Source of the DNA: an uncultured Gammaproteobacteria bacterium
GTDB taxonomy: Bacteria > Patescibacteriota > Microgenomatia > Levybacterales > GWA1-39-11
Reading direction: 5' to 3'
Assembly: GCA_964485575.1 (NCBI GenBank)
Contig: CAZAJO010000003.1
Location: 19,722-83,721 of the forward strand
Length of the DNA stretch: 64,000 bases
This document shows, piece by piece, positions 3,837 to 49,342 of the stretch. Numbering within the stretch: position 1 is the first letter of the stretch; each line of letters begins with the position of its first letter. The notes below the pieces were generated by a model, which was given only the letters and a program-made list of their open reading frames with translations, was not told the origin of the DNA and did not search any database. Made by a program: the position numbers and the translations under genes.

Positions 3837-3901
3837 ATGCTCAATTATAGCTTATTCACACATTCTAAGCTATATGAATGTAGTGATTATAACTTCAAAA
3901 C

Positions 3902-34260: not shown

Positions 34261-34608
34261 TTCTATTTTTGAAGCCATAATGAAGTCATTAGTAGATAAC
34301 CCTTTGATTGCGTGAGTTGTTAAAAATATATCAACTTTATTGTAATAAATTGTAATATCTGGGTGGTGTCCTTGTTCTTCAGCCACTTCCGCTACTTTGT
34401 TCACAAAAACCATTGCTTGCCTAAAATCTTTAAATTTAAATTGTTTTTTAATTGATTTTGAGTCAGTTGAAACTTGCCAAGGAGTTTTAAGGTATGAAAT
34501 ATAGATCTTTATTTCATCACCCCTCATGGGTTCTACTCCACCCTCACAAGGAACACAGTGCCCTTTTACTAAATGAGAATTGTTCATAATATTAACCGAT
34601 TCTAGCAC
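34249..34608 (-). CDS. Pterin-4a-carbinolamine dehydratase (PCD/DCoH)
   Basis: 119 aa, EQGHHPDITIYYNKVDIFLTTH signature. Confidence 0.75.
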   Translation of the reverse strand: MLESVNIMNNSHLVKGHCVPCEGGVEPMRGDEIKIYISYLKTPWQVSTDSKSIKKQFKFKDFRQAMVFVNKVAEVAEEQGHHPDITIYYNKVDIFLTTHAIKGLSTNDFIMASKIELLS

Positions 34609-35377
34609 CCTTTGTTTTTTTGAGTCTTACCATTTTGTGCTTTATAGCTCTATGGGGATAGAACTTCTCTTTACCTATAGCAATCAATGTGTCATTGAAG
34701 ACGTCAAATTCTAATTTTTCTTCTTGTATTTTATTTGAATCAATTTCATCAAGAAGCAACAACGAACCAATAACAGTTACTGAAAATATTGCAGCCGAAA
34801 TTTGTGAAACCAATGTCTCATCACGACCAAGAAAAAGTGCACAAATTATGATAAAGCCTAATATTAATAACATCGCCCATTCGGGAGGATCGACGTCACG
34901 GGGAGCCACTTGAGCTATTTGGTTGCGGGTGGCAGGCAAATAATACATCGACTCATGCATGTAGGCAATGGCATTGGATTCAGCCTCAGTTGTAGGTTTT
35001 GCTTTTCTTAAGGGTTCAAAAATCGCAAAAAACTCCTTGTTTGTTGCTTTTACGTACTGTGTCAGAGGATACTTTATTGCTAAGATCAAATACTGCTCGA
35101 TTCTATCTTCGATTTCTTTTGCAATATCCTTTGGAAGTATCTGAGACAGATTCCACAAAGCAAGAATGCTTGCTGATTCTGCAGAGACGAGGGATTTTAA
35201 TGATGCAAAATTCTGAAGAACTACAGCTGCTTCAAAACCGTAAAAAATACCGTACAAGAAAGTGGCAGATGCTAAAATACCATCAATGTTGTCGACTTTT
35301 ACAATCGGCAAGACCATTGCAAGCCATAATAAAATTAACCCCGATAATATCAGCTTTGAAAACAAACCAAACCTCAT
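34592..35377 (-). CDS. Hypothetical integral membrane protein
   Basis: 261 aa with several hydrophobic helices and no recognisable family. Confidence 0.4.
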   Translation of the reverse strand: MRFGLFSKLILSGLILLWLAMVLPIVKVDNIDGILASATFLYGIFYGFEAAVVLQNFASLKSLVSAESASILALWNLSQILPKDIAKEIEDRIEQYLILAIKYPLTQYVKATNKEFFAIFEPLRKAKPTTEAESNAIAYMHESMYYLPATRNQIAQVAPRDVDPPEWAMLLILGFIIICALFLGRDETLVSQISAAIFSVTVIGSLLLLDEIDSNKIQEEKLEFDVFNDTLIAIGKEKFYPHRAIKHKMVRLKKTKGARIG

Positions 35378-35408
35378 ATTTTAATTAAGGATAATTTGAG
35401 GGAATAAG

Positions 35409-35993
35409 TCAAGAGTTCTGAGGTATGAATTTAAATGTCTCAAGCGCTTTATTAATTGAGGATTTGTTATTGGGAGACAACGTTTCACTGTAAAAATTGA
35501 TAAGAAAAAGTGTACCGGCTTTATCTGTACAATATTGCCTTACGTACCAAAATCTTTGACCGGAAGGTAAGGCAGGGCCGTCTAAATCTTGCTTCCAGAC
35601 AGTCTCTGTCCACTTGTTTTCACCAATTTCAAGCTGATTTTCACTTATTGGAGTTATCGGACTTGAGAAAGAAACATTTGTCTCTTTTGCCTTGAGATCA
35701 GGTCCACCAGATTTTTGAAGCTCAATAAAATCTGAGCATGTAATTTTATCCTGAGTAGTAATAAGTCCAGGAGATAGCTCCCCAATCTTTTTTTTGTTAA
35801 CGTCATAAATTGTTGATCCTTCTTGTTTCATGTCATCAGGCAATGTCATTGAATAACTATAACTGACAGTAGCAGAAGACGGAAACTCAGTGTCATCATT
35901 AATTGTTGGGGTGACGGCTTTATTTGGTCTTAGGAAATAGAATATAGCAAGAGAGACAATGACTATCAAAATTACAATCAGAATTTTTCTCAT
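35409..35993 (-). CDS. Hypothetical secreted/anchored protein
   Basis: 194 aa with an N-terminal signal-anchor (MRKILIVILIVIVSLAIFYF). Confidence 0.4.
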   Translation of the reverse strand: MRKILIVILIVIVSLAIFYFLRPNKAVTPTINDDTEFPSSATVSYSYSMTLPDDMKQEGSTIYDVNKKKIGELSPGLITTQDKITCSDFIELQKSGGPDLKAKETNVSFSSPITPISENQLEIGENKWTETVWKQDLDGPALPSGQRFWYVRQYCTDKAGTLFLINFYSETLSPNNKSSINKALETFKFIPQNS

Positions 35994-36021: not shown

Positions 36022-36708
36022 CTAGATCAACATAGTTGTAGTTAAAAATCTACCTTCATTTTCCTTATTCCTGCTATCTCTGTAGTGTGAGAAGAAATTT
36101 GAATCACGAGCTGTATCAGTGGTATCAACTACAATATTTTCTGCTCTTACACCTTTAAGCAAAAGCTGCTGCATGTTCTCCCCGATAAGATCGTATCCAT
36201 TTGGATGTTCTTCAAGCATGTATGATTCTTTCTTGATTGAGGGTCCCATAAAAACTTTCAATTCATGAAGGTTGGTATCATATTCCCTTCTGAAAAAAGA
36301 TATCAGAATTTGAGAAAATCTACTTTCAGTATTTTTTCGGCTAATGTGCGCAAGACATAAAATCCCATTTGGTCTATCAAATATAATTGCTGGAATACAG
36401 TCTGCAGTAAGAAGTCCTACTGCTAGATTTTTCTCTCGGGTCACGATTGCATCGGCTTTGATAGCAGAGGCTGCCGAATTAATCCCTGTTCCCCCCAGGC
36501 TTGAGGATGCTTCAATTATTTTTGTCCCATGCTGTACTTCAATTATGATTGCTCTTTCGGTAGGAATTCTAATGTCAGTAAAAAACTTCTTCCTGTTAGA
36601 TAAAACCTCTTCACGCTCTCCATATACATAGGACATATTCCCTTCATCTTTTGTTGAGATATGGTGTCTTACAAATCTGTTTGTCAGTAATTGTGGAATA
36701 AAATACAT
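36022..36708 (-). CDS. YfiH/PgeF (DUF152, laccase-domain) family protein
   Basis: 228 aa, LLTADCIPAIIFD and LAHISRKNTES blocks of the YfiH family. Confidence 0.65.
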   Translation of the reverse strand: MYFIPQLLTNRFVRHHISTKDEGNMSYVYGEREEVLSNRKKFFTDIRIPTERAIIIEVQHGTKIIEASSSLGGTGINSAASAIKADAIVTREKNLAVGLLTADCIPAIIFDRPNGILCLAHISRKNTESRFSQILISFFRREYDTNLHELKVFMGPSIKKESYMLEEHPNGYDLIGENMQQLLLKGVRAENIVVDTTDTARDSNFFSHYRDSRNKENEGRFLTTTMLI

Positions 36709-36727
36709 GTTTGATTTATTGAAACTT

Positions 36728-36816
36728 TGTCGAGCTCTACCAAAAAGTTAGAACTCTTCTTTATTAGCTCGCCCCTTCGGGGCTCGCAATGTTTCGCGGC
36801 GTGTGCGGGCGCCGCG
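36728..36816. repeat. IR-A: 89-bp perfect inverted-repeat copy (left boundary of the accessory segment)
   Basis: It is the exact reverse complement of 47486..47574 and starts with the TGTCG core. Confidence 0.9.
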
Positions 36817-37384
36817 AGAAAGTTATCATAATTATTTTTAGCGCGCGCAGTACAAAGAAATTTTTTTATATTTGTCCTTGTCCCGCCACCCGTACGCGGA
36901 CAAATCATAATTTGAAATTATTGTATCCCTTTAAAAAAGAAAACAAACAACGTTTGTCTCATCCTATAAATCCCACCCACCCAAGAAATATTGTGGCGGC
37001 GACCCCTTCCTTTGGGCGCAGGTCGCGCTAAGGCGCAACTCGCCAAAGTTTTGCCAGTTTTTAAAACCTCTAACAATCTCTTCCGGAGAAAATTTCCATT
37101 TAATACGGAAGCGCCGTCGGAGGGGTGTCCGCTTATTCGCCCCCGCCTTTTTTATTCTATCCCTCCTGTTTTACTTTCTTTGGGAAGACACATAATGACT
37201 CGTGCCGATGCTTTCTAAGACCCGAAGGATTTGCAATCGGCACTCGTGTGGGAGAAAAATACTTTGTAAAGTTCTTCCTAAGTCAACCGCTACCAGAAAA
37301 GTATTTTTCTCTTTTTAGGGCGCAATTCCAGACGGAGCGGGGGCGGCGGAGCCGCCAGGGAAAAGAAAAAAATATTGTGGACCA

Positions 37385-37566
37385 CAGAAGAACTGTGGAT
37401 GAATTTTTGAAATCCACAGATTGCCACAGTTTAGCCTCAACCTATCCACAGCTTGTGGACATCCACAGTCCTGTGGGTTTTACAAAAAACTTGAGGCTAT
37501 TTTTTTACATGTCTTGTGGGTACCCTGTGGGTTTTTGAAGCAAGATTTCCAAAACATCAACCCACA
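37385..37566. promoter_or_regulatory. Cluster of about 11 CCACAG/CTGTGG repeats, six resembling DnaA boxes (TTATCCACA) within 2 mismatches
   Basis: CTATCCACA at 37452..37460, AAATCCACA at 37420..37428 and ACATCCACA at 37469..37477, plus reverse copies. The run includes the palindromes TGTGGACCACA and CCACAGTCCTGTGG. Confidence 0.5.
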
Positions 37567-38108
37567 GAAAAGTCGATTTTTGGAATTCCCGACTCTGCGA
37601 TATTGCGCTCTATTTGTTGTCTCATATTTTTTGCATCCTCAAATTCCTTTCCTCTGGCCGCTGTCCTCTGAAGTAAAAGATCATTGCTAATTTGAAGGTC
37701 TACTATTAAATCCGCATCGAATACAATGGTTCCAAACACAGGCTCTCCAGGCCTTACTTTCACCCGTTCTTTTGCTAATCGTTCCATAGTTCTACCAATG
37801 TCTTCTGTCCATGGTTGCTGTTCGACATACACAGTTTCTTCAGGTGTTAGTTGGGGAAATATCAACTCGTCCATATCATGCGCACCAATGATGCTTTGGA
37901 GTAGAGTGGATTTACCGGTGCAAGTAGTACCGACCACAACGACCCGTTTGTCTTTATTCAGGTCAAGCACCGCTTGGAGTTTGTTTGCCAACTCTGATTT
38001 TTCACTGGGTATTTGGGAAACTTCTCTTTTAATTTTTTCTTCAGCCCTAGCTTTAACAATTTCAATTTGTATTCTTTGTCTTCTTAATTGTTCAAAAATG
38101 TTAGGCAT
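37557..38108 (-). CDS. P-loop NTPase, probable nucleoside/nucleotide kinase
   Basis: 183 aa with VVVVGTTCTGKSTLL Walker A and a small kinase-like size. Confidence 0.5.
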   Translation of the reverse strand: MPNIFEQLRRQRIQIEIVKARAEEKIKREVSQIPSEKSELANKLQAVLDLNKDKRVVVVGTTCTGKSTLLQSIIGAHDMDELIFPQLTPEETVYVEQQPWTEDIGRTMERLAKERVKVRPGEPVFGTIVFDADLIVDLQISNDLLLQRTAARGKEFEDAKNMRQQIERNIAESGIPKIDFSVG

Positions 38109-38111
38109 AGT

Positions 38112-38678
38112 TTATCGATTATTTTTTAAAATTTTACTATATATCAAATTTCTTATATAGTCTGCCTTGCTTATGTTTGATTGTTTTGATTGTTCAGAAA
38201 TAAATTTATACATCGAATCACTCATCATAAAATTAAACCTATTTGACAATATTTGTTTATTTGCAAAATTGAGATATTTATTGAATATTTCATTCAGTGT
38301 TTTTTTTGATTCTGGATTATACTGTTTAATCATTAGTAATCTGTTTGGATCTGCCAGGTATAAACCTGAATATCTTACTTGTGCTAAAAAGAGTGTTGGA
38401 ATTCCTTTTTGGAGTGCCTGAGACAATAAAAAACCAGCACCCGTACTTGAAATGGTTCCTTCAAAGACTAATCCATCGCATTTCAGCATCTCTTTAGAGA
38501 GCTTTTTGGCACGTTCTTCGAGCTCTTTTTCCGAAATAACACCCAGTTCGTGGGGCTCATCAAAAGAATGTTTAGAGAGTACCTCGTTTCCAAGAATTTC
38601 AAGCTCATCGACTATCTTACGATAATTGTTTTTTACTTTTGGATCAGACGATATACTTGCTAAGAAAAAAAGTTTCAT
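38112..38678 (-). CDS. Nucleoside 2-deoxyribosyltransferase-like (NDT/DNPH1-fold) protein with a C-terminal extension
   Basis: 188 aa. CDGLVFEGTISSTGAGFLLSQALQKGIPTLFL resembles the PF05014 core. Confidence 0.45.
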   Translation of the reverse strand: MKLFFLASISSDPKVKNNYRKIVDELEILGNEVLSKHSFDEPHELGVISEKELEERAKKLSKEMLKCDGLVFEGTISSTGAGFLLSQALQKGIPTLFLAQVRYSGLYLADPNRLLMIKQYNPESKKTLNEIFNKYLNFANKQILSNRFNFMMSDSMYKFISEQSKQSNISKADYIRNLIYSKILKNNR

Positions 38679-38688
38679 AGTGTTCTAC

Positions 38689-38716
38689 TTGATAAATTTT
38701 TTATTTGCCATATAAT
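38689..38716 (+). promoter_or_regulatory. Sigma70-like promoter for the methyltransferase-to-aminotransferase gene string
   Basis: TTGATA-N16-TATAAT, 40 bp upstream of the ATG at 38757. Confidence 0.5.
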
Positions 38717-38756
38717 ATCATAAAATGTTATGTAATGTATAACTTTTTTAGTTATT

Positions 38757-39443
38757 ATGGTCACGGAGAGATTAGACTTGAAACCTGTTCAGAGATTACT
38801 TGCTAGACATGCTCAACACAACTCTCCTTACTCGCAAGAGTTTGGAGGACTTAACTTAGTTATCTACCCAGACGTTTTTAATCCAGCCTATACTACGGTA
38901 AGTAGTTTATTACATGAAAATTTATCTATTGATCCCGGAGATAGAGTATTAGATATGTTTTGCGGATCTGGCGTACTGGGATTATCTGTAGCAGGATTAG
39001 CAGAAAAGGTTGTTGGTGTAGACATAGCTCCTATTGCAATAAAGTGCGCAACAGAAAACGCTTCAACCAATGGATTGTCGGAAAAAACTGAATTTAGATG
39101 CGGAAATGTATGGGGTGCGGTGAATGAAGGAGAAGTATTCGACTTAATTATTGCAAATCCTCCACTGCTTCCTGCCTACCCGGAATCCATACTTGAAGCT
39201 GCTGTTGCTGATAGTCCTGAGATGAGTATTACTACGAGATTTATAAATGAATGTGGAAAATACCTATCCAAAAAAGGACGAGCTTTAATGGCATTTTCTG
39301 ATGCATCTAGAATTGTATTTGATAATCCACTAGATCATGTTAGAAAATTATCGGACAAAGCAGGATTGTCTATGAATATAAAGGCCGAAAAAGATATGGT
39401 GTATGAAGTATATAGGATTTTAGAATTCAGGAGGAGCATGTAA
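38757..39443 (+). CDS. Class I SAM-dependent methyltransferase (HemK/small-MTase-like)
   Basis: 228 aa, LDMFCGSGVLG motif I and IIANPPL motif IV. Confidence 0.65.
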   Translation: MVTERLDLKPVQRLLARHAQHNSPYSQEFGGLNLVIYPDVFNPAYTTVSSLLHENLSIDPGDRVLDMFCGSGVLGLSVAGLAEKVVGVDIAPIAIKCATENASTNGLSEKTEFRCGNVWGAVNEGEVFDLIIANPPLLPAYPESILEAAVADSPEMSITTRFINECGKYLSKKGRALMAFSDASRIVFDNPLDHVRKLSDKAGLSMNIKAEKDMVYEVYRILEFRRSM

Positions 39444-40603
39444 TGGCAAAAATAATAGCAACTGCGGAAAACTTTGCATTTGGTCCTGCAAGTAAGCTTG
39501 TTACTGTTTGTGAGAAACTATTGCAAAATGGGCATGAAGTAATTTTTGTGGGAGAAGGCACAGCCTATCAGCTAGCAAGCAAAGTAAAATTCACAAAGAT
39601 TTATAAATATAACACTGACAATAAAAGTTTTATGAAATGGGGAGAAAAAGTCTTTAAACAAGCAGATATTCTTCTATCTAGTGTTGATAGATCAAGTGTG
39701 ATTCTCGCTAAAAAAATAGGGCTTCCCGTCATTTGGCTAGATATGCTTTTTTGGTGGTGGGATGAAATTCCAGAATATTTGTTCGATATAGATTTATATA
39801 TCCAACAAAATTCCGTGAAAAATGAAAGAAACATGAATAGATATAAGAATAAGATAAAAAACATGGTGATAGTGGGTCCGATTATTGATAAATCTTACAA
39901 TAAAAACAAGAAATTAAATCAACTACTTGTTGCTTTTGGAGGTTCCAATGCAGAAGGATGGGTAAAAATTGGAAGAGATACAAACTACCCTTATACTTTC
40001 GCAAATTTAATAATAAACAAAGTTCACACGGATAAATATGACAAAGTTTTATTTGCAGGAAATGAAGAGATTATGGCTAACCTGCAAAAAAAACACGGCA
40101 ACGAAAAGTTTAAATTTTCCATCCTTTCTCATGAAGAATGGCTAAGAGAAGTAGACAGATCTAGAGATATTTTAATCAATCCTGGGTTGGAGGCTCCACT
40201 AGAAGCAATAGCTTATGGTAAACCAATCTTTTTCCTTCCACCATATAACAGCAGCGCGTACGTGGAATTAGACGAATTTAGAGAGAAGGGATTAGCTGAT
40301 AAAAATAATTCAATTCATTTTTCTGATTATTTCCCTCATAAAAATTTAGCTGGAAGGGATTTAAAACAAATCATGACAGAATTCCTCGAGGAATTAAGAA
40401 AATTTGAAAATTCTCAAGAAATTTTGGACAATTGTGCAAGAAGAATTAATCAGTATCTACAATTATCCAGTAAAGAAAAGGATGCACAAAAACATAGACA
40501 GAACCAATTTATTAAAAGTTTGGGTAAAGAAGGATTGACAGATACAGTTTCTCTAATCAATAACATTATTTCTAATATTTCAAATAAACCATATGTTAAG
40601 TGA
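39443..40603 (+). CDS. Putative GT-B glycosyltransferase (MurG/UGT-like fold)
   Basis: 386 aa, N-terminal Rossmann-like MAKIIATAENFAFGPASKL..GHEV. Weak family assignment. Confidence 0.35.
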   Translation: MAKIIATAENFAFGPASKLVTVCEKLLQNGHEVIFVGEGTAYQLASKVKFTKIYKYNTDNKSFMKWGEKVFKQADILLSSVDRSSVILAKKIGLPVIWLDMLFWWWDEIPEYLFDIDLYIQQNSVKNERNMNRYKNKIKNMVIVGPIIDKSYNKNKKLNQLLVAFGGSNAEGWVKIGRDTNYPYTFANLIINKVHTDKYDKVLFAGNEEIMANLQKKHGNEKFKFSILSHEEWLREVDRSRDILINPGLEAPLEAIAYGKPIFFLPPYNSSAYVELDEFREKGLADKNNSIHFSDYFPHKNLAGRDLKQIMTEFLEELRKFENSQEILDNCARRINQYLQLSSKEKDAQKHRQNQFIKSLGKEGLTDTVSLINNIISNISNKPYVK

Positions 40604-41678
40604 AGTAGAGCCAATAGTTAACAAACATATGGCAAGTACTGAAAATGGGTACCTTTTAAGGAGATTAAGAGGCGGAATTAGTAGTGAAAACTATCAAGTA
40701 ACCCCTAACGTTCCTGATGAAGCAACCCACTCAGTAGTATTTACACTCTTTAGAGATCCATCTACCTGGGGTAGTATTGAAAGAGAAAATACTATTTATG
40801 ATCTTGTTAAAGATGATAAGGATGTTCGAATCCCTAAGATATTTGATTCAGGCATTGACAATATTGACGGTGTGCAAGTTGCCTTTTTACTCAGAGAATT
40901 TCTTGAAGGAGAAGACCTAGATACTATTTTAGATTCAAGACTTAACCCTCAGAGAAAAATGGGTGAAATAGCTGATATTGCAAAAGACTTAGGATTCAGA
41001 CTAGGAGCATTACATAGACATGATACTTCTATGTATGGTTTGATTGGAAAACCAAATAATGGATATACAAGTTGGGGTAATTATATTTTTGATGAGATAG
41101 AAAACGAAGCGCGACTTATTGGAGAAGTACCTCAAGAAAAGCAAATAGGAAGAACTAAGGCTGGAGATGTAGCTAAAACTTTATCTGGCTTAAGCGTCGT
41201 CTTCGGTACAATGCAAGATGCGTTTCGTATAAAAGAAAACCCGAGTTTAGCTCATGGCGATGCAAGGTTTGCGAATTTTATAGCCGAAAAAGACCATAAT
41301 AAATGGGGCATACAAGGAATGATTGACATGGAAGAAGCAACTGGCGGAGATCCCGAAATTGATATCGCCTTTATTGAAAATTGGCTGCACTTTGCGGATT
41401 ATAAAGTCGATTTCTATGCTCAATCACGGTATTTTACTCAAGGATATTTAAGTGTTAGAGGAATTAGCCCGAAATATAATGAGCGAAGATTAGCATATCA
41501 TGCTTTACGTTCTTTATCATACCTGAGAACAGTTTTTGGTTTTGATATAGATACTTTCTTGAGCATGAATTCGAGGAATGAGGCGTATGTGAAGAAACAT
41601 TTCGAAATTCTTGATTCCATTTCAAAGGGAAACGGTTTAGAGGATCTAGATATTAGACCTTTAATAAAGTTACATTAG
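40593..41678 (+). CDS. Phosphotransferase of the APH/choline-kinase family
   Basis: 361 aa with AHGDARFANF (catalytic HGD..N) and IDMEEATGGDPEIDIAF (DxE). Confidence 0.6.
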   Translation: MLSEVEPIVNKHMASTENGYLLRRLRGGISSENYQVTPNVPDEATHSVVFTLFRDPSTWGSIERENTIYDLVKDDKDVRIPKIFDSGIDNIDGVQVAFLLREFLEGEDLDTILDSRLNPQRKMGEIADIAKDLGFRLGALHRHDTSMYGLIGKPNNGYTSWGNYIFDEIENEARLIGEVPQEKQIGRTKAGDVAKTLSGLSVVFGTMQDAFRIKENPSLAHGDARFANFIAEKDHNKWGIQGMIDMEEATGGDPEIDIAFIENWLHFADYKVDFYAQSRYFTQGYLSVRGISPKYNERRLAYHALRSLSYLRTVFGFDIDTFLSMNSRNEAYVKKHFEILDSISKGNGLEDLDIRPLIKLH

Positions 41679-41679
41679 T

Positions 41680-42681
41680 ATGAAGAATAAACACGATGAA
41701 AGTTTCTATAAAAATAAAAAAGTATTAATTACTGGAGGCTTAGGATTTTTAGGCAGTAGTCTTGCAATTGAATTAGTAAAGCTTGGGGCTGACGTTACAG
41801 TTGTAGACTCGCTTATAAAAGGGTACGGAGGGAATATATATAATGTCCAGGATGTAAAAAATAAGATAAACATAAACATTTCTGACGTTCGGGATAGATA
41901 TAGCATGGATTACCTGGTGAAGGATAAGGAGATAATGTTTAATTTAGCAGGTACGTTAAGTCATGTTGATAGTATGGCTGATCCCTTTTCCGATCTTGAA
42001 ATAAATTGCAAAAGCCAGCTTTCTATATTGGAATCTTGTAGGCATAATAATCCAGAAATTAAAATTGTATGGGCGGGAACGAGAAATCAATATGGTAGAG
42101 CACAATATTTACCCGTTAATGAAGATCATCCACAAGTTCCGACAGATGTTAACGGAATTAATAATATTGCCGGTGAACAATATCACCTTCTCTACAATTC
42201 AGTCTATGGATTAAAAACCTGTTCTCTGAGGTTAACAAATTGTTATGGCCCAAGACATCAAATGCGACATTCCAGGCAAGGGGTTTTAAACTGGTTTATA
42301 AGACAAATTATGGATGGAGAAGAAATAAAATTATTTGGTTCAGGAATACAAATTCGAGATATTAACTTTGTTGATGATGTGACCAATGCATTTCTATTGG
42401 TAGGTGCCGCTGATAACGTTTGGGGGCAGGCGTACAATTTAGGAGGAAACGCTGTAAGCCTGGAAGAGTTTGTAAAAAAAATAATTAAAGTCTATGGTAA
42501 AGGTAGATTTAGCTCAGCAGAGTTTACTGATGATAGAAAAAAAATAGAGATAGGGAATTATATAGCAGATTGGGGAAAAATAAAAAAAGATGTAAATTGG
42601 AAACCAATTGTTAACGTAGAAAAAGGCATAGAAAGAACAATTAAGTACTATGAAAAAAACAAAAAACAATATTGGGGTTAA
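41680..42681 (+). CDS. NAD-dependent sugar-nucleotide epimerase/4,6-dehydratase (SDR family)
   Basis: 333 aa with a VLITGGLGFLGSSL Rossmann motif and a YxxxK-type core. Confidence 0.8.
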   Translation: MKNKHDESFYKNKKVLITGGLGFLGSSLAIELVKLGADVTVVDSLIKGYGGNIYNVQDVKNKININISDVRDRYSMDYLVKDKEIMFNLAGTLSHVDSMADPFSDLEINCKSQLSILESCRHNNPEIKIVWAGTRNQYGRAQYLPVNEDHPQVPTDVNGINNIAGEQYHLLYNSVYGLKTCSLRLTNCYGPRHQMRHSRQGVLNWFIRQIMDGEEIKLFGSGIQIRDINFVDDVTNAFLLVGAADNVWGQAYNLGGNAVSLEEFVKKIIKVYGKGRFSSAEFTDDRKKIEIGNYIADWGKIKKDVNWKPIVNVEKGIERTIKYYEKNKKQYWG

Positions 42682-43780
42682 GGTCCCATTTTTTCCAGCG
42701 GCAATAGAATACGCTTCGATAATGCATGATTTGCATGATGCCCTAGATGAGGTCGGAAGAAGTGGAAGATTAATTTTTGGACAAAAAGTTAATACCCTTG
42801 AAAACACAATCGCAAAATTAATGGAGTCTAAATATTGTGTAACTTGTGCTTCCGGAACTGATGCGATCATGCTTTCACTAAAGGCATTAGGAATCAAATC
42901 TGGTGATGAAGTAATTGTTCCTGCAAATGCGTACCCAACAGTATTTGGAGTTGTCCTAGCGGGTGCAATACCAAAATTAATAGATGTTAAAAATGAAACA
43001 GGTAATTTAAATCCCAAGCTTCTTAAAGATGCAATAACAAAAAAAACAAAAGCTGTCATTTTAGTTCATCTTTATGGGTTGGCTGCTGATATTCATGAAG
43101 TCAAAAAAATTTGTAAACAAAAAGGGGTATATTTGATTGAAGATTGTGCTCAGGCTTTTGGGTCAATGCATAAAGGAAGTCCGGTTGGTTCATTCGGGGA
43201 TATATCAATATTAAGTTTTTACCCAACAAAAAATCTTGGTGCATTAGGTGATGGTGGTGCGATAGTAACATCAATCAAAAAGGTACATGAAAAACTCTTG
43301 ATGTTGAGAATGTACGGAGAGAAAAAACGTTATGACAGTGAGTTGCTAAGCGGTCACAGTCGCCTTGATGAGTTACAAGCTGCATTTTTACTAAAAAAAC
43401 TTAGAAAATTGAACGGTTGGATTACAAGACGAAAAAGGCTTGCTAAAATTTACATGGAATCTTTATCTAATATTAAAAACCTATCACTACCCATAGATCA
43501 TTTAGAAGAGCATACGTATCATTTGTTCGTTGTTCAAACTGAATATCGAGATGAACTTCAGCTTTGGCTTTCTAAAAATGGCATAGAAACTGGTATCCAT
43601 TATCCAAAATCAATACATTTAACAAAAACATTTTCTTTTGCTGGAAAAGTTGGAGATTTTCCTGTTTCTGAAAAACATAACAGAACTGTACTGTCTCTAC
43701 CCATGCATCAGTTTTTAACTTATAAACAAATAAAATATGTTTCTAGTAAAATTGTAGATTTTTTTGAGACAATTAGTTAA
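42650..43780 (+). CDS. DegT/DnrJ/EryC1/StrS-family PLP-dependent sugar aminotransferase
   Basis: 376 aa with SGTDAIMLSLKALGI and an SFYPTKNLGALGDGG PLP-lysine block. Confidence 0.8.
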   Translation: MKKTKNNIGVKVPFFPAAIEYASIMHDLHDALDEVGRSGRLIFGQKVNTLENTIAKLMESKYCVTCASGTDAIMLSLKALGIKSGDEVIVPANAYPTVFGVVLAGAIPKLIDVKNETGNLNPKLLKDAITKKTKAVILVHLYGLAADIHEVKKICKQKGVYLIEDCAQAFGSMHKGSPVGSFGDISILSFYPTKNLGALGDGGAIVTSIKKVHEKLLMLRMYGEKKRYDSELLSGHSRLDELQAAFLLKKLRKLNGWITRRKRLAKIYMESLSNIKNLSLPIDHLEEHTYHLFVVQTEYRDELQLWLSKNGIETGIHYPKSIHLTKTFSFAGKVGDFPVSEKHNRTVLSLPMHQFLTYKQIKYVSSKIVDFFETIS

Positions 43781-43789
43781 TTAAAAAAT

Positions 43790-44215
43790 ATGAAAGTTTT
43801 TATAGCAGGTATAATGCAAGGAAATCGTAAGGATAAACTGATCCACTCTCAAGATTATAGAGAAATCATATCTAATAAATTAGATCTGATTGTGGAAAAC
43901 GTTGAGGTAATCGATCCTGATAAGACTGACCCGGATAGATTATCTTATAACCATGAACAAGCAAAAGAAATGTTTTTTAAATATTGTAAAATAGCCGGAG
44001 AAGCGGACTTGTTAATAGCCTACATTCCAGAAGCCAGTATGGGATCTGCGGTGGAAATGTGGATGGCGTATCAAGCAAGAATCCCAATAGTAACTATCTC
44101 TTCAATGAAAGCAAATTGGGTAATTAAATTGTTATCAAACGAGATATATGAAACCTTAGAAGAATTCATTGAAAATTTTGACAACGATATGCTTAGCAAG
44201 CTAAAAACCATTTAG
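43790..44215 (+). CDS. Second nucleoside 2-deoxyribosyltransferase-like protein
   Basis: 141 aa. ADLLIAYIPEASMGSAVEMWMAYQARIPIV resembles the NDT-family core. Confidence 0.4.
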   Translation: MKVFIAGIMQGNRKDKLIHSQDYREIISNKLDLIVENVEVIDPDKTDPDRLSYNHEQAKEMFFKYCKIAGEADLLIAYIPEASMGSAVEMWMAYQARIPIVTISSMKANWVIKLLSNEIYETLEEFIENFDNDMLSKLKTI

Positions 44216-44824
44216 ATGATCTATAAAGTTAATATTAATTAATTTATACTCTTTGCTTATTGGGTCAAAATATACAGTAGTAATTGAAGCCTCATTAATC
44301 GTATCTTCGAGGGAATCAGTAAGTGATGGTACTACTGATTTCAATAATTTCTCATCGAATATATTCCGTAAAAAATCCCCAATAATTCCCCCATGCGTAA
44401 CTAATACTAGATTAAGATCAGAATAATCTGACGAACTAATTATCTTATGTATTCTATTTCCAGCATCTCTAGACGAGTCGCCGACAGGCGGAATCCAATC
44501 TCTGTCTACTGTGGATCTGTTCCACATCTCTAAAAATTGTTCAAATGACTGATTTTGATCATCTCCCCAATTTGCACGCTCTCTAAGCAAGTCGTCGACC
44601 TTAAATGTAAGGTTTAATTCCTTTGAGATAATTTCCGCGGTTTGCTTAGATCTTAAAATGGGGCTAGACAAAACAACGTGTACATTTTTATTAGAGAGAT
44701 GTTGGGCGGTTTTTTTAACCTGCGCTTGCCCTTTAGCTGTCAATGGAGGATCACCTTTAATTTTTTGCTTCTCTCCGTGTCTTATTATGTAGATAGTGGT
44801 AGCCATAAAAAAATTATACAACAA
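44201..44824 (-). CDS. Histidine phosphatase (phosphoglycerate-mutase / SixA family)
   Basis: 207 aa with an RHGE catalytic motif (IIRHGEK) and a downstream His. Confidence 0.7.
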   Translation of the reverse strand: MLYNFFMATTIYIIRHGEKQKIKGDPPLTAKGQAQVKKTAQHLSNKNVHVVLSSPILRSKQTAEIISKELNLTFKVDDLLRERANWGDDQNQSFEQFLEMWNRSTVDRDWIPPVGDSSRDAGNRIHKIISSSDYSDLNLVLVTHGGIIGDFLRNIFDEKLLKSVVPSLTDSLEDTINEASITTVYFDPISKEYKLININFIDHLNGF

Positions 44825-45170
44825 ATTACTTAAATTTAAGACAATTTATGAACCTGAGCATAATATTGCATTTTTTACTCTTGCATTTGTAAGAAAAAGA
44901 AGCAAAAATATTTATATGGATGAAAACCAGTATAAAGAAAGTCCTGAAACTAGAGAGATTAAAAGTGAGATAGCGCAGGAGAAACCTCGTGATGAGGAAG
45001 GGCATTTTGTTCACGTAGAGCAGCCCCAGACCTCCACAACACCACATTTTAATCCTATCTCTCATTCCTCCACGATGAAACAGCCATCCACAAATCCAAT
45101 GATGATGAGCTTATCGATGTCCATGTGGGAAATCCTCTTCACAAGATTGTGGAACTGCTTCAAGATATAA
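44796..45170 (+). CDS. Hypothetical protein (may start at ATG 44916)
   Basis: ORF only, with Q/P/T-rich low-complexity sequence. Possibly one frameshifted gene together with 45125..45517. Confidence 0.2.
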   Translation: MVAIKKLYNKLLKFKTIYEPEHNIAFFTLAFVRKRSKNIYMDENQYKESPETREIKSEIAQEKPRDEEGHFVHVEQPQTSTTPHFNPISHSSTMKQPSTNPMMMSLSMSMWEILFTRLWNCFKI

Positions 45171-45517
45171 AAAAGCAAAAAGCATTTAGTTTTACTCTTA
45201 AAGGTTCTTTGGGTATTGCGGGGGTAGCACTTGCCCTTGGGATGTTCGGAATTTTCGGAGCGGGAAATTTACTGTGCGAGAAAGGCACTCAAAAAGAGAT
45301 TGGGGTAATCAAAACCCTCAGTGTTATGGAAGAGGAACCAGTGGCAATTCCGCTTTTGTCAGACATTATTGATTATTTTGCGCCAAGAGCCAGACACTAC
45401 AGCGTTGTTTTGATTAGAAAAGATGAGTCCGTCATTTCCCTTCCTTATTCTCGGAACGTAAATTTTTCTCAATACAATAATGCCCCCGTCATCGCCACCG
45501 GCAACTACGACGCTTGA
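45125..45517 (+). CDS. Hypothetical small membrane protein (GTG start)
   Basis: 130 aa, with one TM-like segment GSLGIAGVALALGMFGIFGAG. Confidence 0.25.
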   Translation: MGNPLHKIVELLQDIKKQKAFSFTLKGSLGIAGVALALGMFGIFGAGNLLCEKGTQKEIGVIKTLSVMEEEPVAIPLLSDIIDYFAPRARHYSVVLIRKDESVISLPYSRNVNFSQYNNAPVIATGNYDA

Positions 45518-45616
45518 GGCCAGAAACTAAAAAGTCACCGACCCGTCTGCTCTTGAAGGTTACAATACACTTCCCTAATCTATCCAAGCTCTCTTCTTCA
45601 AAAAACACGATAACAA

Positions 45617-45645
45617 TTGCTATCAGCCTCAAACAGGCGTATAAT
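45617..45645 (+). promoter_or_regulatory. Sigma70-like promoter upstream of the OLD-family nuclease gene
   Basis: TTGCTA-N17-TATAAT ending 15 nt before ATG 45661. This implies a very short leader. Confidence 0.4.
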
Positions 45646-45660
45646 TTTGCTAGCTCAAAC

Positions 45661-47295
45661 ATGTTTATAAAATCCCTAAAAATCAAGAACTTCAGATCAA
45701 TAAAACATCTTGATATTGAACCAAGCGATTTATGCGCTATTATTGGACCCAATAGTGCTGGAAAAACAAATATTCTAAAAGCAATAGATTTGATTCTTGG
45801 AGAAGGATGGACAACGAAAGCAAAAGTTGCAAAAGAGCTATTCAATGATCCAGACAAGCCGGTTGAAATAGCAATAGAATTAGATGAATCTATAAGCTTC
45901 ACGGGAGGAAAAGGATATGACGTTACTGTTTCAAGTATAGAGTTGGAAATGACACTACGTCCTGAACTACATGTTCAGACAACAATAAATAGGGGTGATA
46001 AATTTTACGATCAAGAAAAATTTAAAAAATTATGCCATTTTATTTACATCCCTTCAGAAAGGTCTCTAGAGTCAGAATTGAGAGTTAGTCAGTGGACGAT
46101 GTTAGGTAAATTGATGAAACTTATTTATGAAGCATACCTTACAAACTACGACAACGATGAAGTAAAGTTAAAAGATGCATTTGAAAAGGAAATAAATCCG
46201 GCAAAAGAATTCCTTGAAAAAGATTTTTCAAATGGTTCAAGTCTAATAACTTTTAAAAAGTTTTCTGATGTATTTAAAAAATATTGTCTTAAAAATAGTG
46301 CGGGATTAGCAAATGGCTTTGAACCTGTCCTTAATATTTACAATATAAACTGGTTTTACAAAACTTTACAAATACATGTCAAGGAGGATCTGCCAGATAA
46401 ACATTTTGAAAGCGATGAAGTTGGTGCCGGAATGCAAACGCTTCTTATGATTTCAATTTTTCAAACCTATGCAGAACTTATGGGTGGAAGAGTTATCTTT
46501 GGAGTTGAAGAACCAGAGATTTATTTATATCCACAGGCACAAAGGTCTCTTTATAAAAACTTTATTGAATTATCAAACAATACGCAGATATTTTACACAA
46601 CACATAATCCAAATTTTGTTGATGCAGCCAGACCAGATAACATGCTTCTATTGAGAAAATCAACAGATAAGGGCACATATAAATTAGAAAAAAATGAATA
46701 TTTTAACTCAACAATTGCAGAGAAAGAGAAATATAAAATTTATACACATTTTAATCCAGAGAGAAATGAAGTATTTTTTGCGAGAAAAGTGTTATTGGTT
46801 GAAGGAGATTCCGATAAAATACTTTTTACCACGCTTTGTGAAGAAAAGTGGAATATAGATATAGATTTACTAGGTGTATCAATTATATCTTGTGGTGGAA
46901 AAAGTGGTGTTAATTATTTTATAGGTGTTTGTAATCTAATAGGCTTAGACGATTATTTTGCCGTTTGGGATGAGGACAATGATCATTTTCAACCAGATAA
47001 AGATTTCCTACCATATACGTTTGCAGCAAACAAAGGGCTAGAAATTAAAGAAAATTTAGAGAAATTTTTAAAGCTTTCTTCGAATAAAGACGCAACTAAA
47101 GTCAAGAATGCTTACGAATGGGCAATTAATATAAAAACAGATGACATCCCTCAAGAATTTAGGATTATAAAAGATTTCATTATTGAAGGATATCATCCAA
47201 AGAGTAGTAATAAGGTTGAGGTAGTAACTACAAATGTAATTGTCGAAACTACAGAAGTAGATACAGAACCTAACCCAGACGATATTCCATTTTAA
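45661..47295 (+). CDS. OLD-family (overcoming lysogenization defect) ATPase-Toprim nuclease, standalone class-1-like
   Basis: MFIKSLKIKNFRSIKHLDIE..IIGPNSAGKTN gives the ABC-ATPase N-terminus. The C-terminal Toprim block is VLLVEGDSDKILF. I chose the start at the family-typical N-terminus rather than the 45514 extension. Confidence 0.75.
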   Translation: MFIKSLKIKNFRSIKHLDIEPSDLCAIIGPNSAGKTNILKAIDLILGEGWTTKAKVAKELFNDPDKPVEIAIELDESISFTGGKGYDVTVSSIELEMTLRPELHVQTTINRGDKFYDQEKFKKLCHFIYIPSERSLESELRVSQWTMLGKLMKLIYEAYLTNYDNDEVKLKDAFEKEINPAKEFLEKDFSNGSSLITFKKFSDVFKKYCLKNSAGLANGFEPVLNIYNINWFYKTLQIHVKEDLPDKHFESDEVGAGMQTLLMISIFQTYAELMGGRVIFGVEEPEIYLYPQAQRSLYKNFIELSNNTQIFYTTHNPNFVDAARPDNMLLLRKSTDKGTYKLEKNEYFNSTIAEKEKYKIYTHFNPERNEVFFARKVLLVEGDSDKILFTTLCEEKWNIDIDLLGVSIISCGGKSGVNYFIGVCNLIGLDDYFAVWDEDNDHFQPDKDFLPYTFAANKGLEIKENLEKFLKLSSNKDATKVKNAYEWAINIKTDDIPQEFRIIKDFIIEGYHPKSSNKVEVVTTNVIVETTEVDTEPNPDDIPF

Positions 47296-47354
47296 CTACA
47301 TTTGATATATATCCTCTCAGTTGAAAAACTTCGTGAAACTGATATATTAAACTC

Positions 47355-47436
47355 GAACACAACACTTTGGATCTCTTTTTTGATGGCCGCTTTGGACAAT
47401 TGGAGAGATCCTGTTGTGTTCAACCAGAGCGGCCAT
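47355..47436. repeat. Interleaved inverted repeats A-B-A'-B' between the OLD gene and IR-A'
   Basis: GAACACAACA..GGATCTC (47355..47375) pairs with GAGATCCTGTTGTGTTC (47405..47421). ATGGCCGCTTTGG (47383..47395) pairs with CCAGAGCGGCCAT (47424..47436). The two hairpins are mutually exclusive. Confidence 0.6.
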
Positions 47437-47485
47437 TTTAGAAAATTTTTGCGTTTTCAAAAGGCGAGCCAACACATTTAAGGTA

Positions 47486-47574
47486 CGCGGCGCCCGCACA
47501 CGCCGCGAAACATTGCGAGCCCCGAAGGGGCGAGCTAATAAAGAAGAGTTCTAACTTTTTGGTAGAGCTCGACA
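47486..47574. repeat. IR-A': 89-bp perfect inverted copy of IR-A
   Basis: It is the exact reverse complement of 36728..36816 and ends in CGACA, the reverse complement of the core. Confidence 0.9.
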
Positions 47575-47672
47575 TTTAAAGAGTTTTCATTTTTAAGCTC
47601 AGAAAGTTGGAGTCCCGCAAGTGCGGGACGGATTGCCCCAAAGCCCTTTTTGAGAATTGGGGAAAGTTGCCG
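47570..47672. repeat. IR-B: 103-bp inverted-repeat copy immediately upstream of the serine recombinase gene
   Basis: It is the reverse complement of 49099..49202 apart from one 1-bp indel, contains the palindrome GTCCCGCA-AG-TGCGGGAC, and overlaps IR-A' by the 5-bp CGACA core. Confidence 0.9.
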
Positions 47673-47704
47673 AAAAGAAGTAGAAAACGCAAAAATTTAA
47701 TACC

Positions 47705-49342
47705 ATGAAATACATTGCATACTGCAGGAAATCCAGAGATGAAGCTGATAAACAGGTCTTGTCTATTGAGGCCCAAATTGCAGAGTTACAGGAATTTGCA
47801 AAACGTGAGAAAATTGAAATTGTTGAATTTGTCGAAGAAGCAAAAACTGCCAAAGCCCCCGGACGTGAGAAATTTTCAGAAGTAATTCAAAAGCTAGAGC
47901 GCGGACTTGCCCAGGGGATTATTGCGTGGCATCCCGACCGCTTGGCAAGAAACAGTATTGATGGTGGAAAGATTATCTATTTACTCGATACCGGAAAAAT
48001 AAAGGATTTAAAGTTTCCAACCTTCTGGTTTGAAAATACTCCTCAGGGAAAATTTATGTTAAATATCGCTTTTGGACAAAGTAAATATTACATAGATAAT
48101 CTTTCTGAAAATGTGAGGCGGGGGCTTCGGCAGAAAATACGTAATGGCGTCTGGCCGCACAAGCCAACGTATGGATATGTAAATAATCCTAAAACCCGCG
48201 GTATTGATGTTGACCCTTTTGCCTCTTCGGGAATCATAAAAGCATATGAAGCGTTTTGCAAAGGAGACAAGACCTTTACAGATATTTCAAAGTTATTATT
48301 CAAATGCGGCTTGCAACAAAGAAACGGAAAGCCACTTCATATAAATGAAGTAAGAAAAATACTGTCCGACAAGTTTTATATTGGCATTATGAAATTTAAG
48401 GGGGAATATCATCCCGGAACACATAAGCTATTTATCCCAAAAGATTTATTTCAAAAAGTACAGGAGGAATTAAAATGGCGTGAGGCACATCACAATAAAT
48501 CTTTTGGCTTTCCGTTTCTGGGACTTATGAAATGTAGTGAGTGTGGCGCTTCCATAACCGCTGAAAAACATACAAAATTCTATAAAGGTACCAACCGTCG
48601 TCCCACCTATGTTTACTACCGCTGTACTAAAAAAATGGGTCCTTGCTCACAGAAAATGATAAAAGGTGAACTATTGGAAGAACAACTGAGAGAAATTGTT
48701 GCAAGCTGCGCATTACCGGAAAGCTGGATTCCTCAATGGCTTTCCTGGGTTGAGAGGTATGAAATATCTGAAAAAGAATTATCGGCTTCATCTATTCAAA
48801 AATTTCAGGATGAGATAGTATCACTCGACAAAAAGTTAAATATCCTGCTTGATGGTTTTTTGGAAAATATAGTTGACAGTGATACATATAAAAGAAAGAA
48901 AAATGAAATTTTTGAAGAAAAGATACTTCTTGAAGAACAAATCGCAAAATTAAAGGGTGAGGATGGAAACCGGCTCGAACTTCTTCGGGAATTAATAGAA
49001 GTGTCGTCACAATGCGAAAAAATTGCGCGCGCTAAAAACAATTGCGAGGATTTGGCAATCCTCGCGAAACGTGTCGGCTCGAACTTCTTTTTAAAGGAAC
49101 GGCAACTTTCCCCAATTCTCAAAAAGGGCTTTGGGGCAATCCGTCCCGCACTTGCGGGACTCCAACTTTCTGAGCTTAAAAATGAAAACTCTTTAAATGT
49201 CGGGGTGCAGGGAATTGAACCCTGGCCGCACGACCCCCAGCCGTACATTCTACCGTTAAACCACACCCCGAGCGAAGCGAGGGGAGCCAAGACAAAATCT
49301 CTGATTTTGGCTTACACCCCGATAGGTCGCTCCATATTTTAA
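47705..49342 (+). CDS. Large serine recombinase (integrase/invertase family); true C-terminus uncertain
   Basis: MKYIAYCRKSRDE is the resolvase catalytic-Ser N-terminus. A recombinase domain (GVWPHKPTYGY) is followed by a zinc ribbon (CSECG..YYRCTKK..C) and a coiled-coil. The ORF stays open through IR-B' and the antisense tRNA-Pro until 49342. Confidence 0.8.
   Translation: MKYIAYCRKSRDEADKQVLSIEAQIAELQEFAKREKIEIVEFVEEAKTAKAPGREKFSEVIQKLERGLAQGIIAWHPDRLARNSIDGGKIIYLLDTGKIKDLKFPTFWFENTPQGKFMLNIAFGQSKYYIDNLSENVRRGLRQKIRNGVWPHKPTYGYVNNPKTRGIDVDPFASSGIIKAYEAFCKGDKTFTDISKLLFKCGLQQRNGKPLHINEVRKILSDKFYIGIMKFKGEYHPGTHKLFIPKDLFQKVQEELKWREAHHNKSFGFPFLGLMKCSECGASITAEKHTKFYKGTNRRPTYVYYRCTKKMGPCSQKMIKGELLEEQLREIVASCALPESWIPQWLSWVERYEISEKELSASSIQKFQDEIVSLDKKLNILLDGFLENIVDSDTYKRKKNEIFEEKILLEEQIAKLKGEDGNRLELLRELIEVSSQCEKIARAKNNCEDLAILAKRVGSNFFLKERQLSPILKKGFGAIRPALAGLQLSELKNENSLNVGVQGIEPWPHDPQPYILPLNHTPSEARGAKTKSLILAYTPIGRSIF
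49099..49202. repeat. IR-B': 104-bp inverted copy of IR-B, ending at the tRNA-Pro 3' end
   Basis: It matches the reverse complement of 47570..47672 with one extra G, and terminates with the TGTCG core overlapping the last bases of the tRNA. Confidence 0.9.
49200..49270 (-). tRNA. tRNA-Pro (anticodon GGG)
   Basis: A manually folded 71-nt cloverleaf on the minus strand has a 7-bp acceptor stem (CGGGGUG/CACCCCG), a D-arm with GG and a T-arm CAGGG-UUCAAUU-CCCUG. The anticodon loop is CU-GGG-GG with U33 and G37. CCA is not encoded. Confidence 0.8.

Follow-up and report, generated by a model that had tools for sequence, protein, structure and literature searches.

We have analyzed a 64-kb stretch of DNA (the window: positions 19,722 to 83,721 of contig CAZAJO010000003.1, assembly GCA_964485575.1, GTDB lineage Patescibacteriota, Levybacterales) and within it a group of nine open reading frames (ORFs), numbered g1 to g9 by position in the window. 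A first-pass annotation, made from the letters alone, had described the group as a compact set of enzymes acting on amino sugars and nucleosides, and all nine ORFs were found with the boundaries that it had reported. On the reverse strand, g1 (37557-38108, 183 aa) encodes a P-loop NTPase and g2 (38112-38678, 188 aa) a protein with a DNPH1/nucleoside 2-deoxyribosyltransferase (NDT)-fold domain followed by a putative C-terminal ribbon-helix-helix (RHH). The forward strand carries six genes: g3 (38757-39443, 228 aa), a S-adenosylmethionine (SAM) methyltransferase of the MTS/HemK-like class; g4 (39443-40603, 386 aa), a GT-B glycosyltransferase (GT); g5 (40593-41678, 361 aa), a phosphotransferase of the APH/choline-kinase fold; g6 (41680-42681, 333 aa), an extended short-chain dehydrogenase/reductase (SDR); g7 (42650-43780, 376 aa), a sugar aminotransferase of the DegT/DnrJ/EryC1 family that uses pyridoxal phosphate (PLP); and g8 (43790-44215, 141 aa), a second NDT/DNPH1-fold protein. 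The last gene, g9 (44201-44824, reverse strand), encodes a histidine phosphatase of branch 1, which is 207 aa long, or 201 aa if it begins at the ATG that gene callers choose elsewhere.

The six forward genes (38757-44215) form a compact operon in which neighbours overlap or are separated by no more than 9 nt. The pair g1 and g2 is divergent from this operon, with the start of g1 lying 3 nt past the stop codon of g2, and g9 is convergent with g8, the two overlapping by 15 nt. The sigma-70-like promoter TTGATA-N16-TATAAT (38689-38716, forward strand), read in the sequence, is assigned to g3 to g8. It lies exactly where the first-pass annotation had placed it and is the top sigma-70-like match, at 11 of 12 positions, in a scan of the region 36.7-47.8 kb; promoter-like sites as a class do not exceed chance in that region (34 observed against 37.7 expected). 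Seven genes had been attributed to this promoter, but only the six co-directional ones follow it. Between its -10 box and the start of g3 lies an unstranded 17-bp palindrome, GTTATGTAATGTATAAC (38727-38743), which is a candidate operator. It occurs once in the window, where 0.01 matches would be expected by chance, and it overlaps a weak divergent promoter-like site for g2 (38741-38712). A palindrome of the form GTT(A/G)TAC-AWT-GTATAAC adjoins the start of g2 in all seven of the loci from the candidate phyla radiation (CPR) that carry g2.

The glycosyltransferase encoded by g4 has no matching Pfam family. It matches the NCBIfam model TIGR04467 for cytosylglucuronic acid (CGA) synthase with an E-value of 3.5e-11 and 42.8 bits, short of the curated equivalog cut-off of 300 bits. 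The same model is matched by 36 of the 36 aligned family members (g4 and 35 relatives), the best at 4.1e-27 and none near 300 bits, while the other NCBIfam models yield just two marginal GT matches for this family. In profile searches the C-terminal half of g4 weakly resembles UGT/YjiC chains, which are UGT-type GT-B enzymes. By sequence, g4 is a member of an uncharacterised sister family of CGA synthase, homologous to that enzyme without being its equivalog. In the biosynthesis of blasticidin and mildiomycin, CGA synthase couples the free base cytosine with UDP-glucuronate (PMC3715490). By analogy, we propose that g4 may be a nucleobase N-hexosyltransferase. The superfamily to which it belongs comprises 1315 clusters at 50% identity (E<=1e-3), and the assignment of one member of so large a GT family would annotate many genes. 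Some members of the superfamily are fused to radical SAM/SPASM, DegT (one of these from a Rhabdochlamydia genome) or class-I methyltransferase domains (P0323, P0333, P0351/P0362, P0074). No relative of g4 was found by a GT profile scan of 2.9 million viral contigs.

The AlphaFold2 (AF2) model of g8 has a mean confidence (pLDDT) of 90.5, and its top Foldseek match in the PDB is MilB, which acts as a CMP/hmCMP N-glycosidase in the mildiomycin pathway (4jel, 4jem and 4ohb; TM 0.67-0.71), followed by DNPH1 and NDTs; these top matches have a probability of 1.00 and TM values of 0.6-0.7. The motif S83-M-G85-SAV-E89 (S-x-G-xxx-E) is invariant in both a 16-homologue and a 35-homologue set. In MilB the corresponding Ser97 and Gly99 contact the phosphate and Glu103 is the nucleophile (S97-x-G99-xxx-E103; PMC4081090), and the spacing of the motif in g8 is identical, at an overall identity to MilB of 17%. 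Matches of g8 to Pfam fall below the gathering scores (PF15891, 24.7 bits against 30, E = 3e-5; PF05014, 16.1 against 28.8), and among the 35 members of its family (E<=0.01) PF05014 is found in 10 and PF15891 in 9. Sequence searches of PDB chains with g2, g4, g5 and g8 returned nothing useful, and profiles added only marginally, hence the recourse to predicted structures. Since MilB is the best match of the model and the invariant S-x-G-xxx-E mirrors the phosphate-binding and nucleophile residues of MilB, we propose that g8 is a nucleoside 5'-monophosphate (NMP) N-glycosidase, predicted to release a free base and ribose 5-phosphate.

Homologues of g4 with 35-77% identity are found in Roizman-, Levy-, Woese-, Pace-, Ames-, Shapiro- and Saccharibacteria, and others at about 40% identity in Streptomyces, Kribbella and Catenulispora. 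Clustering of the neighbouring ORFs revealed a syntenic core of methyltransferase, GT, g8-type glycosidase, APH kinase and histidine phosphatase in 12-15 distinct loci (methyltransferase in 15, APH in 14, histidine phosphatase in 12). This core is shared by Roizman-, Levy-, Woese- and Saccharibacteria and by Streptomyces, Kribbella and Catenulispora; in the Actinobacteria the g8 homologue directly follows the GT. The orthologous cluster of Streptomyces chartreusis (CP108840.1) lies at around 4.366-4.378 Mb. The first-pass annotation had suggested a search for co-occurrence, and the gene set does recur in many other genomes. It had also placed a toolkit for an amino-deoxy sugar at the centre of the set. 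The core of the cassette is a different one: the DegT and SDR genes are accessory, present in 6-7 of the approximately 15 distinct loci (a g7-type DegT in 6). Literature searches returned papers on known pathways and no description of this gene combination.

The second NDT/DNPH1-like protein, g2, presents a different picture. Its AF2 model (pLDDT 78.6) has the DNPH1 fold over the first 140 residues, and all of its top Foldseek matches are DNPH1/Rcl, which are 2'-deoxynucleoside 5'-phosphate N-hydrolases (E = 3e-6; TM relative to the target about 0.7). DNPH1/Rcl is thus the closest structural match of this putative sensor domain, as it is a good match for g8, and g2 retains the phosphate-binding Ser and Gly positions. 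In place of the catalytic Glu nucleophile, however, g2 has a leucine (S78-x-G80-xxx-L84), and this position is Leu, Tyr or Phe across all of its homologues. Residues 146-179 give a weak match to a NikA-like RHH in Pfam (0.0035), and in the model two helices are predicted within the last 40 or so residues, preceded by a short stretch that is either disordered or a strand. DNPH1 itself, in contrast, is a stand-alone housekeeping enzyme with no such tail. Conservation of g2 is confined to the CPR versions of the cluster. Because a DNPH1 fold lacking the nucleophile is combined here with a putative RHH tail and a conserved adjoining palindrome, g2 is most likely not an enzyme but a putative nucleotide-sensing RHH regulator, repressor or activator, of the two divergent promoters. 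Of the first-pass claim for two NDT/DNPH1-like proteins, modelling and fold searches bear out the fold for both, while g2 is probably not an enzyme.

Four of the remaining functional calls of the first-pass annotation, namely methyltransferase, APH, DegT and histidine phosphatase, pass the Pfam gathering scores in profile searches. The methyltransferase g3 matches PF05175 (1e-15) and NF011529 (2.5e-28), and its motif IV, ANPPLLP (N134-P-P-L137), is invariant in the CPR and actinobacterial orthologues; it also matches the PADLOC model mad2 at 6.6e-25, over the methyltransferase domain alone. By analogy with known enzymes, g3 might either N-methylate the product or protect a target such as rRNA. 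The kinase g5 matches PF01636 (7e-16, 59.1 bits against a gathering score of 23.2) with an intact catalytic loop, H221-G-D223-ARFA-N228, and a gene of this type is duplicated in Actinobacteria; again by analogy, we propose that it would phosphorylate the product or an intermediate. The phosphatase g9 has the R15-H16-G17 motif (PF00300, 2e-25, 90.1 bits against 21.7) and is proposed, on similar grounds, to carry out a dephosphorylation step. The aminotransferase g7 has the strongest match of the set (PF01041, 2.9e-97, 326.6 bits against 19.8), with the PLP lysine K194 within SFYPTK; its nearest NCBIfam equivalogs are PseC and WecE-like, all under their cut-offs.

Two further calls hold in part. 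The SDR g6 is indeed an extended SDR, with a PF01370 match above the gathering score (6e-40) and an intact Rossmann motif. It lacks the Tyr/Lys dyad of this family, having N158 and N162 instead, and reads T134-R135-N136 where 4,6-dehydratases have T-D-E, as mapped by three independent and concordant HMMER alignments to GalE and RmlB structures. With these replacements g6 is no canonical dehydratase or epimerase, as the first-pass annotation had called it, and an RmlB-like identity was rejected on the catalytic residues. The substitutions are common to the orthologues in three related loci (L003, L005 and L026); the SDRs of other cluster variants are canonical. Together with the proposed DNPH1-fold RHH regulator, the dyad-less SDR makes a small enzymological puzzle in its own right. 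The call of a P-loop kinase for g1 reduces to a generic P-loop NTPase: Walker A (GTTCTGKST) is present and there are only generic P-loop matches, all under curated cut-offs. No homologue of g1 is found among 93 related loci, nor is g1 homologous to the P-loop genes in the vicinity of the L008 and Streptomyces clusters. By these sequence comparisons g1 probably lies outside the conserved cassette, and we rejected it as a conserved pathway kinase, there being no linkage to the cassette in other loci. Of the nine genes, two probably do not encode enzymes of the pathway: g2 is most likely a regulator, and g1 is not cassette-linked elsewhere.

Around the conserved core, the loci differ in their accessory genes. 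DegT together with the atypical SDR is found in this window and in L003, L005 and L026. An FdtA ketoisomerase, DegT and a GT2-like protein accompany the core in L006 and L028, and a carbamoyltransferase with the GT2-like protein in L007, L030, L033 and all of the Actinobacteria, a group in which a PhyH dioxygenase and a second APH are also found. Extra class-I methyltransferases are among the variable genes as well. Carbamoyltransferase, PhyH, FdtA with DegT, GT2-like transferases and additional methyltransferases are typical of the tailoring of natural products. Some cassettes also embed genes of histidine biosynthesis: HisG in L005, L028, L029 and L030, HisE in L028 and L033, and HisI with a HisA-like barrel in L028 and L030. 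Other CPR cassettes embed a DUF84 NTPase, or a NUDIX protein and a pyrophosphatase. The histidine-pathway or DUF84/NUDIX/pyrophosphatase genes lie at 3346-4095 and 8228-9533 in L028, 8570-9319 and 15428-16941 in L030, 2749-3483 in L005 and 7308-7613 in L033. By their sequence assignments, the embedded His genes point to a branch from early histidine biosynthesis. An apparent truncated remnant of HisG lies between g2 and g3 in L007 (15794-16602). The window itself has no His genes.

The closest known systems are the CGA pathways of blasticidin S, mildiomycin, arginomycin and gougerotin, in which BlsM/MilB act with BlsD/MilC. These combine an NMP N-glycosidase of the NDT superfamily with a GT of the CGA lineage (PMC3715490, PMC4081090), a pairing also proposed for the cassette, and aminate the sugar later with a PLP enzyme, as g7 would. 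The fusions of GT-family members to radical SAM and DegT recall steps of the BlsE/BlsH type, in the order CGA synthase, radical SAM enzyme and aminotransferase of blasticidin-type pathways. A radical SAM enzyme, peptide or amide ligases and a CMP hydroxymethylase are all missing from the window, on the other hand, while the cassette core adds an MTS-type methyltransferase, an APH kinase and a histidine phosphatase, and its hosts include CPR bacteria. The distance is also considerable at the level of the proteins (42.8 against 300 bits for g4, 17% identity to MilB for g8).

Two other pathways offer partial parallels. Purine nucleoside clusters of the pentostatin type are known for carrying a HisG copy, which is a hallmark of theirs (PMC12648386). 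In pentostatin/coformycin clusters PenA is the HisG copy, PenB an SDR and PenC a SAICAR-synthetase-like protein, and related cassettes of the present family likewise embed a dedicated HisG, with HisE/HisI/HisA in addition in L028 and L030. Ren et al. in 2020 reportedly placed the branch point of the pentostatin-type pathway after HisA. The resemblance does not extend to the window, with its lack of His genes, nor was any SAICAR-synthetase homologue found across the cassette family, and the cassette has a GT and an NMP glycosidase, both of which are missing from pentostatin clusters. In angustmycin biosynthesis, AgmA (an AMP phosphoribohydrolase) and AgmE (a phosphoallulosyltransferase) provide a documented case of NMP hydrolysis followed by re-glycosylation, as in CGA pathways. 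The logic of releasing a base from an NMP and attaching it to a different sugar is shared, whereas angustmycin uses an APRT-like phosphoribosyltransferase with a ketose pyrophosphate in place of GT-B with an NDP-hexose, and the hydrolase families differ. Tunicamycin, capuramycin, puromycin/A201A, amicetin, septacidin, huimycin and bacimethrin were each considered as the identity of the Streptomyces cluster and rejected for misfit in gene content, in a comparison that did not extend to MIBiG.

We read the cassette as a self-regulated mobile pathway for a small molecule of the nucleoside-antibiotic type, a hexosyl-nucleobase made by a sugar swap, and give this reading slightly better than even odds (about 55%). 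The sugar swap is suggested because an NMP N-glycosidase is paired with a CGA-synthase-like transferase. From what was observed directly (folds, motifs, synteny, the conserved operator and the mobility of the island) we infer substrates, an order of steps and a product as follows. In the first step g8 would cleave an NMP, setting free the base and ribose 5-phosphate. Next, g4 would couple the base to an NDP-hexose, or might glycosylate the base before g8 acts, to give a hexopyranosyl nucleoside. The DegT enzyme g7, perhaps with the atypical SDR g6, would then put an amino group on the sugar, and g3 would N-methylate the product or methylate the target of the producer as a protection. For the latter, the RsmC-like methylase encoded in the saskemycin gene cluster is a precedent. 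The kinase g5 and the phosphatase g9 could constitute a pair for putting a phosphate on and taking it off, either by way of a cryptic-phosphate intermediate or in a prodrug cycle for self-protection. Finally, g2 would sense a nucleotide, bind the palindrome that overlaps both divergent promoters, and so control the operon. Analogy with CGA synthase suggests cytosine as the base. The nucleotide used by the cassette family may instead be purine-derived, as suggested by the HisG, HisE, HisI and HisA genes that are embedded in related clusters.

Several observations weigh against this pathway. The score of g4 is far below the CGA-synthase cut-off, neither acceptor nor donor can be deduced, no product or activity is on record for the g4 family or the cassette, and most of the database names are "hypothetical". 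The window has no NDP-sugar nucleotidyltransferase and no 4,6-dehydratase, which leaves the source of a keto-sugar unaccounted for, and g6 lacks the residues for the oxidation that would feed the aminotransferase. No exporter was found on the island. Defence genes (OLD nuclease, restriction-modification (RM) genes, Fic) are borne by the island and some related loci, g3 resembles the MAD2 methylase domain, and the roles suggested for the kinase, the phosphatase and the methyltransferase are drawn by analogy.

The defence genes raise the prospect that the cassette belongs to an anti-phage or inter-microbial conflict system, making or destroying an intracellular nucleotide derivative, such as an analogue that terminates chains or acts as a signal, or depleting nucleotides by means of the NDT-like enzyme; the region would then be a defence island and not the source of a secreted antibiotic. 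We consider this unlikely. An OLD-family nuclease does lie on the island (PADLOC Old, 5.5e-47), RM methylases, Fic, HNH and a PIN-TPR protein flank the Roizmanbacteria locus, and g1 matches mad8 (8e-7) and g5, weakly, MAD6 (0.004), in addition to the mad2 match of g3. Three of the 35 g8-family members match a model of the SLOG family, a family associated with conflict systems. The matches to the methylation-associated defence system (MADS), however, are limited to generic methyltransferase, P-loop and kinase domains and do not add up to the multi-gene set mad1-8; no PADLOC model matches the GT, g2, g6, g8 or g9, and the GT has no relative in the viral contigs scanned. The carbamoyltransferase, PhyH, FdtA/DegT and HisG-E-I-A accessories are biosynthetic, moreover, and the Streptomyces version sits in an ordinary context resembling a biosynthetic gene cluster (BGC).

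Three further explanations rank lower, and each leaves core genes unexplained. The GT, APH kinase and methyltransferase could inactivate an incoming antibiotic or shield its target, with a toxic nucleotide analogue being removed by the NDT-like enzyme and the phosphatase, in a system for resistance or for detoxification and salvage. Among the classical enzymes of resistance are GT1-like transferases, APH kinases and rRNA methylases. In PDB descriptions, DNPH1-type enzymes serve to sanitise nucleotides that carry modifications, and a BGC-encoded RsmC-like MTS methylase confers self-resistance in the producers of saskemycin, a compound otherwise unrelated (PMC12637814). The strict pairing of GT and NMP glycosidase is left unexplained by such a role, quite improbable in our view, as are the aminotransferase, ketoisomerase, carbamoyltransferase and histidine-pathway accessories and the fusions of the GT to radical SAM and DegT. 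Glycosylation of the cell surface or of proteins, in which an NDP-amino-deoxy sugar would be made and transferred to a glycan, lipid or protein, is more doubtful still. Sugar pathways for O-antigens and S-layers typically include DegT and SDR enzymes, the JGI name of g7 is "dTDP-4-amino-4,6-dideoxygalactose transaminase", and one distant GT-family member bears the UniRef name "lipid-A-disaccharide synthase"; yet DegT and SDR are not in the conserved core, the SDR has lost its catalytic residues, and the cassette is without flippase, polymerase, polyprenyl-phosphate transferase and nucleotidyltransferase. Nor is there a role in glycan assembly for an NMP N-glycosidase, a kinase/phosphatase pair or HisG-E-I-A. 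The lowest probability goes to hypermodification of nucleic acids, in which bases of the cell's own DNA or tRNA would be glycosylated, aminated or methylated. Nucleic-acid bases are frequent targets of MTS/HemK-like methyltransferases with an NPP motif, the context in which PF15891 was defined is that of DNA-modification systems, and the gene set shares its island with a nuclease. Against this, we found no base-excision or transglycosylase enzyme, polymerase-linked gene or modification-specific restriction partner, the GT profile scan of viral contigs was empty, g8 retains the 5'-phosphate-binding motif of mononucleotide hydrolases, and the histidine-pathway and carbamoyltransferase accessories indicate small-molecule chemistry. 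Both this option and the surface glycans had been left open by the first-pass annotation and are now the less likely readings.

The idea of a pathway combining a nucleoside or nucleotide with a sugar, also put forward at that stage, has gained in strength from these comparisons and from the predicted structure of g8. The GT is CGA-related, g8 models as MilB-like and the set is found elsewhere; neither of the outcomes named in the first-pass annotation as refuting the idea (ORFs belonging to unrelated housekeeping families, or a set that never recurs) has come about. Our verdict is that the first-pass observation was largely correct and its interpretation correct in outline, and that the cassette probably represents a novel and widespread version of a nucleoside-natural-product theme. 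The genomes of CPR bacteria are very small, and secondary-metabolite clusters are generally reported to be scarce in them. If the product is nucleoside-antibiotic-like, a mobile and strain-variable cassette would give them a chemical weapon or signal that is relevant to an episymbiotic lifestyle. Clear orthologues exist in Streptomyces, which can be cultured, and this opens the question to direct tests. More speculatively, CPR bacteria and actinomycetes might share an undescribed family of nucleoside natural-product pathways with new nucleobase-hexosyltransferases and a MilB-like hydrolase, fed by HisG-E-I-A in some lineages (with a purine- or AICA-derived base), masked by phosphate until the phosphatase acts, and spread by serine-recombinase islands; we hold this only tentatively. 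If true, these would rank with the earliest antibiotic-like pathways to be defined in episymbiotic ultra-small bacteria, and g2 would be a nucleotide-sensing RHH regulator of a new type.

As the first-pass annotation had it, the cassette is carried by a mobile segment. This is a 12.5-kb integrative island (36715-49198, unstranded) at the 3' end of a tRNA-Pro gene (49199-49270, reverse strand), which is the insertion site. The extent of the island follows from an empty site in L104, a 205-kb contig with a RecA 100% identical to that of the window, in which yfiH is joined directly to tRNA-Pro (9795-9872). The island is 98.9-100% identical between contigs whose flanks share 79-92%. In addition to the cassette it carries the gene for the OLD-family ATPase/TOPRIM nuclease (45514-47295) and that for a large serine recombinase of 545 aa (47705-49342). 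The OLD nuclease has no GajB-like partner and appears as a stand-alone defence gene travelling with the cassette. In L094, a block with 98.9% identity to the window (36028-49270) spans yfiH and the island in a second host background, with flanks at 79-87%, and in L097 the OLD gene is followed by the gene for ribosomal protein S18, which represents another context or a chimera.

Two perfect inverted-repeat pairs, of 89 nt (36728-36816 and 47486-47574) and 103 nt (47570-47672 and 49100-49202), are present in the island. The internal block that they define (47486-47672, 187 nt) is the reverse complement of the right end of the island joined to its left end, the ends sharing TGTCG; it resembles an inverted attP junction and lies immediately upstream of the gene for the serine recombinase. 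The same structure is found in the independent assemblies L094 and L095, and contig L096 breaks inside the repeats. The structure may be invertible. The recombinase ORF runs through the right arm of the inverted repeat and the antisense strand of tRNA-Pro, and inversion of 47673-49099 would alter its C-terminal tail; the representative of a related cluster is 418 aa long.

In the non-coding DNA of the island at 37382-37567, nine of the 20 CCACAG/CTGTGG motifs of the window lie within 186 bp. Several are in T(T/C)ATCCACA-like contexts that resemble DnaA boxes, and one forms the palindrome TGTGGACATCCACA; the array could consist of iterons, mark an origin or bind a protein. Immediately before it are GC-rich hairpins (36770-37030). 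Beside the island, the segment from a GT4 gene to yfiH (33262-35993) is strain-variable and constitutes a second variable spot, with patatin, bestrophin-like and 194-aa genes in the window and Pterin_4a in L094 and L104.

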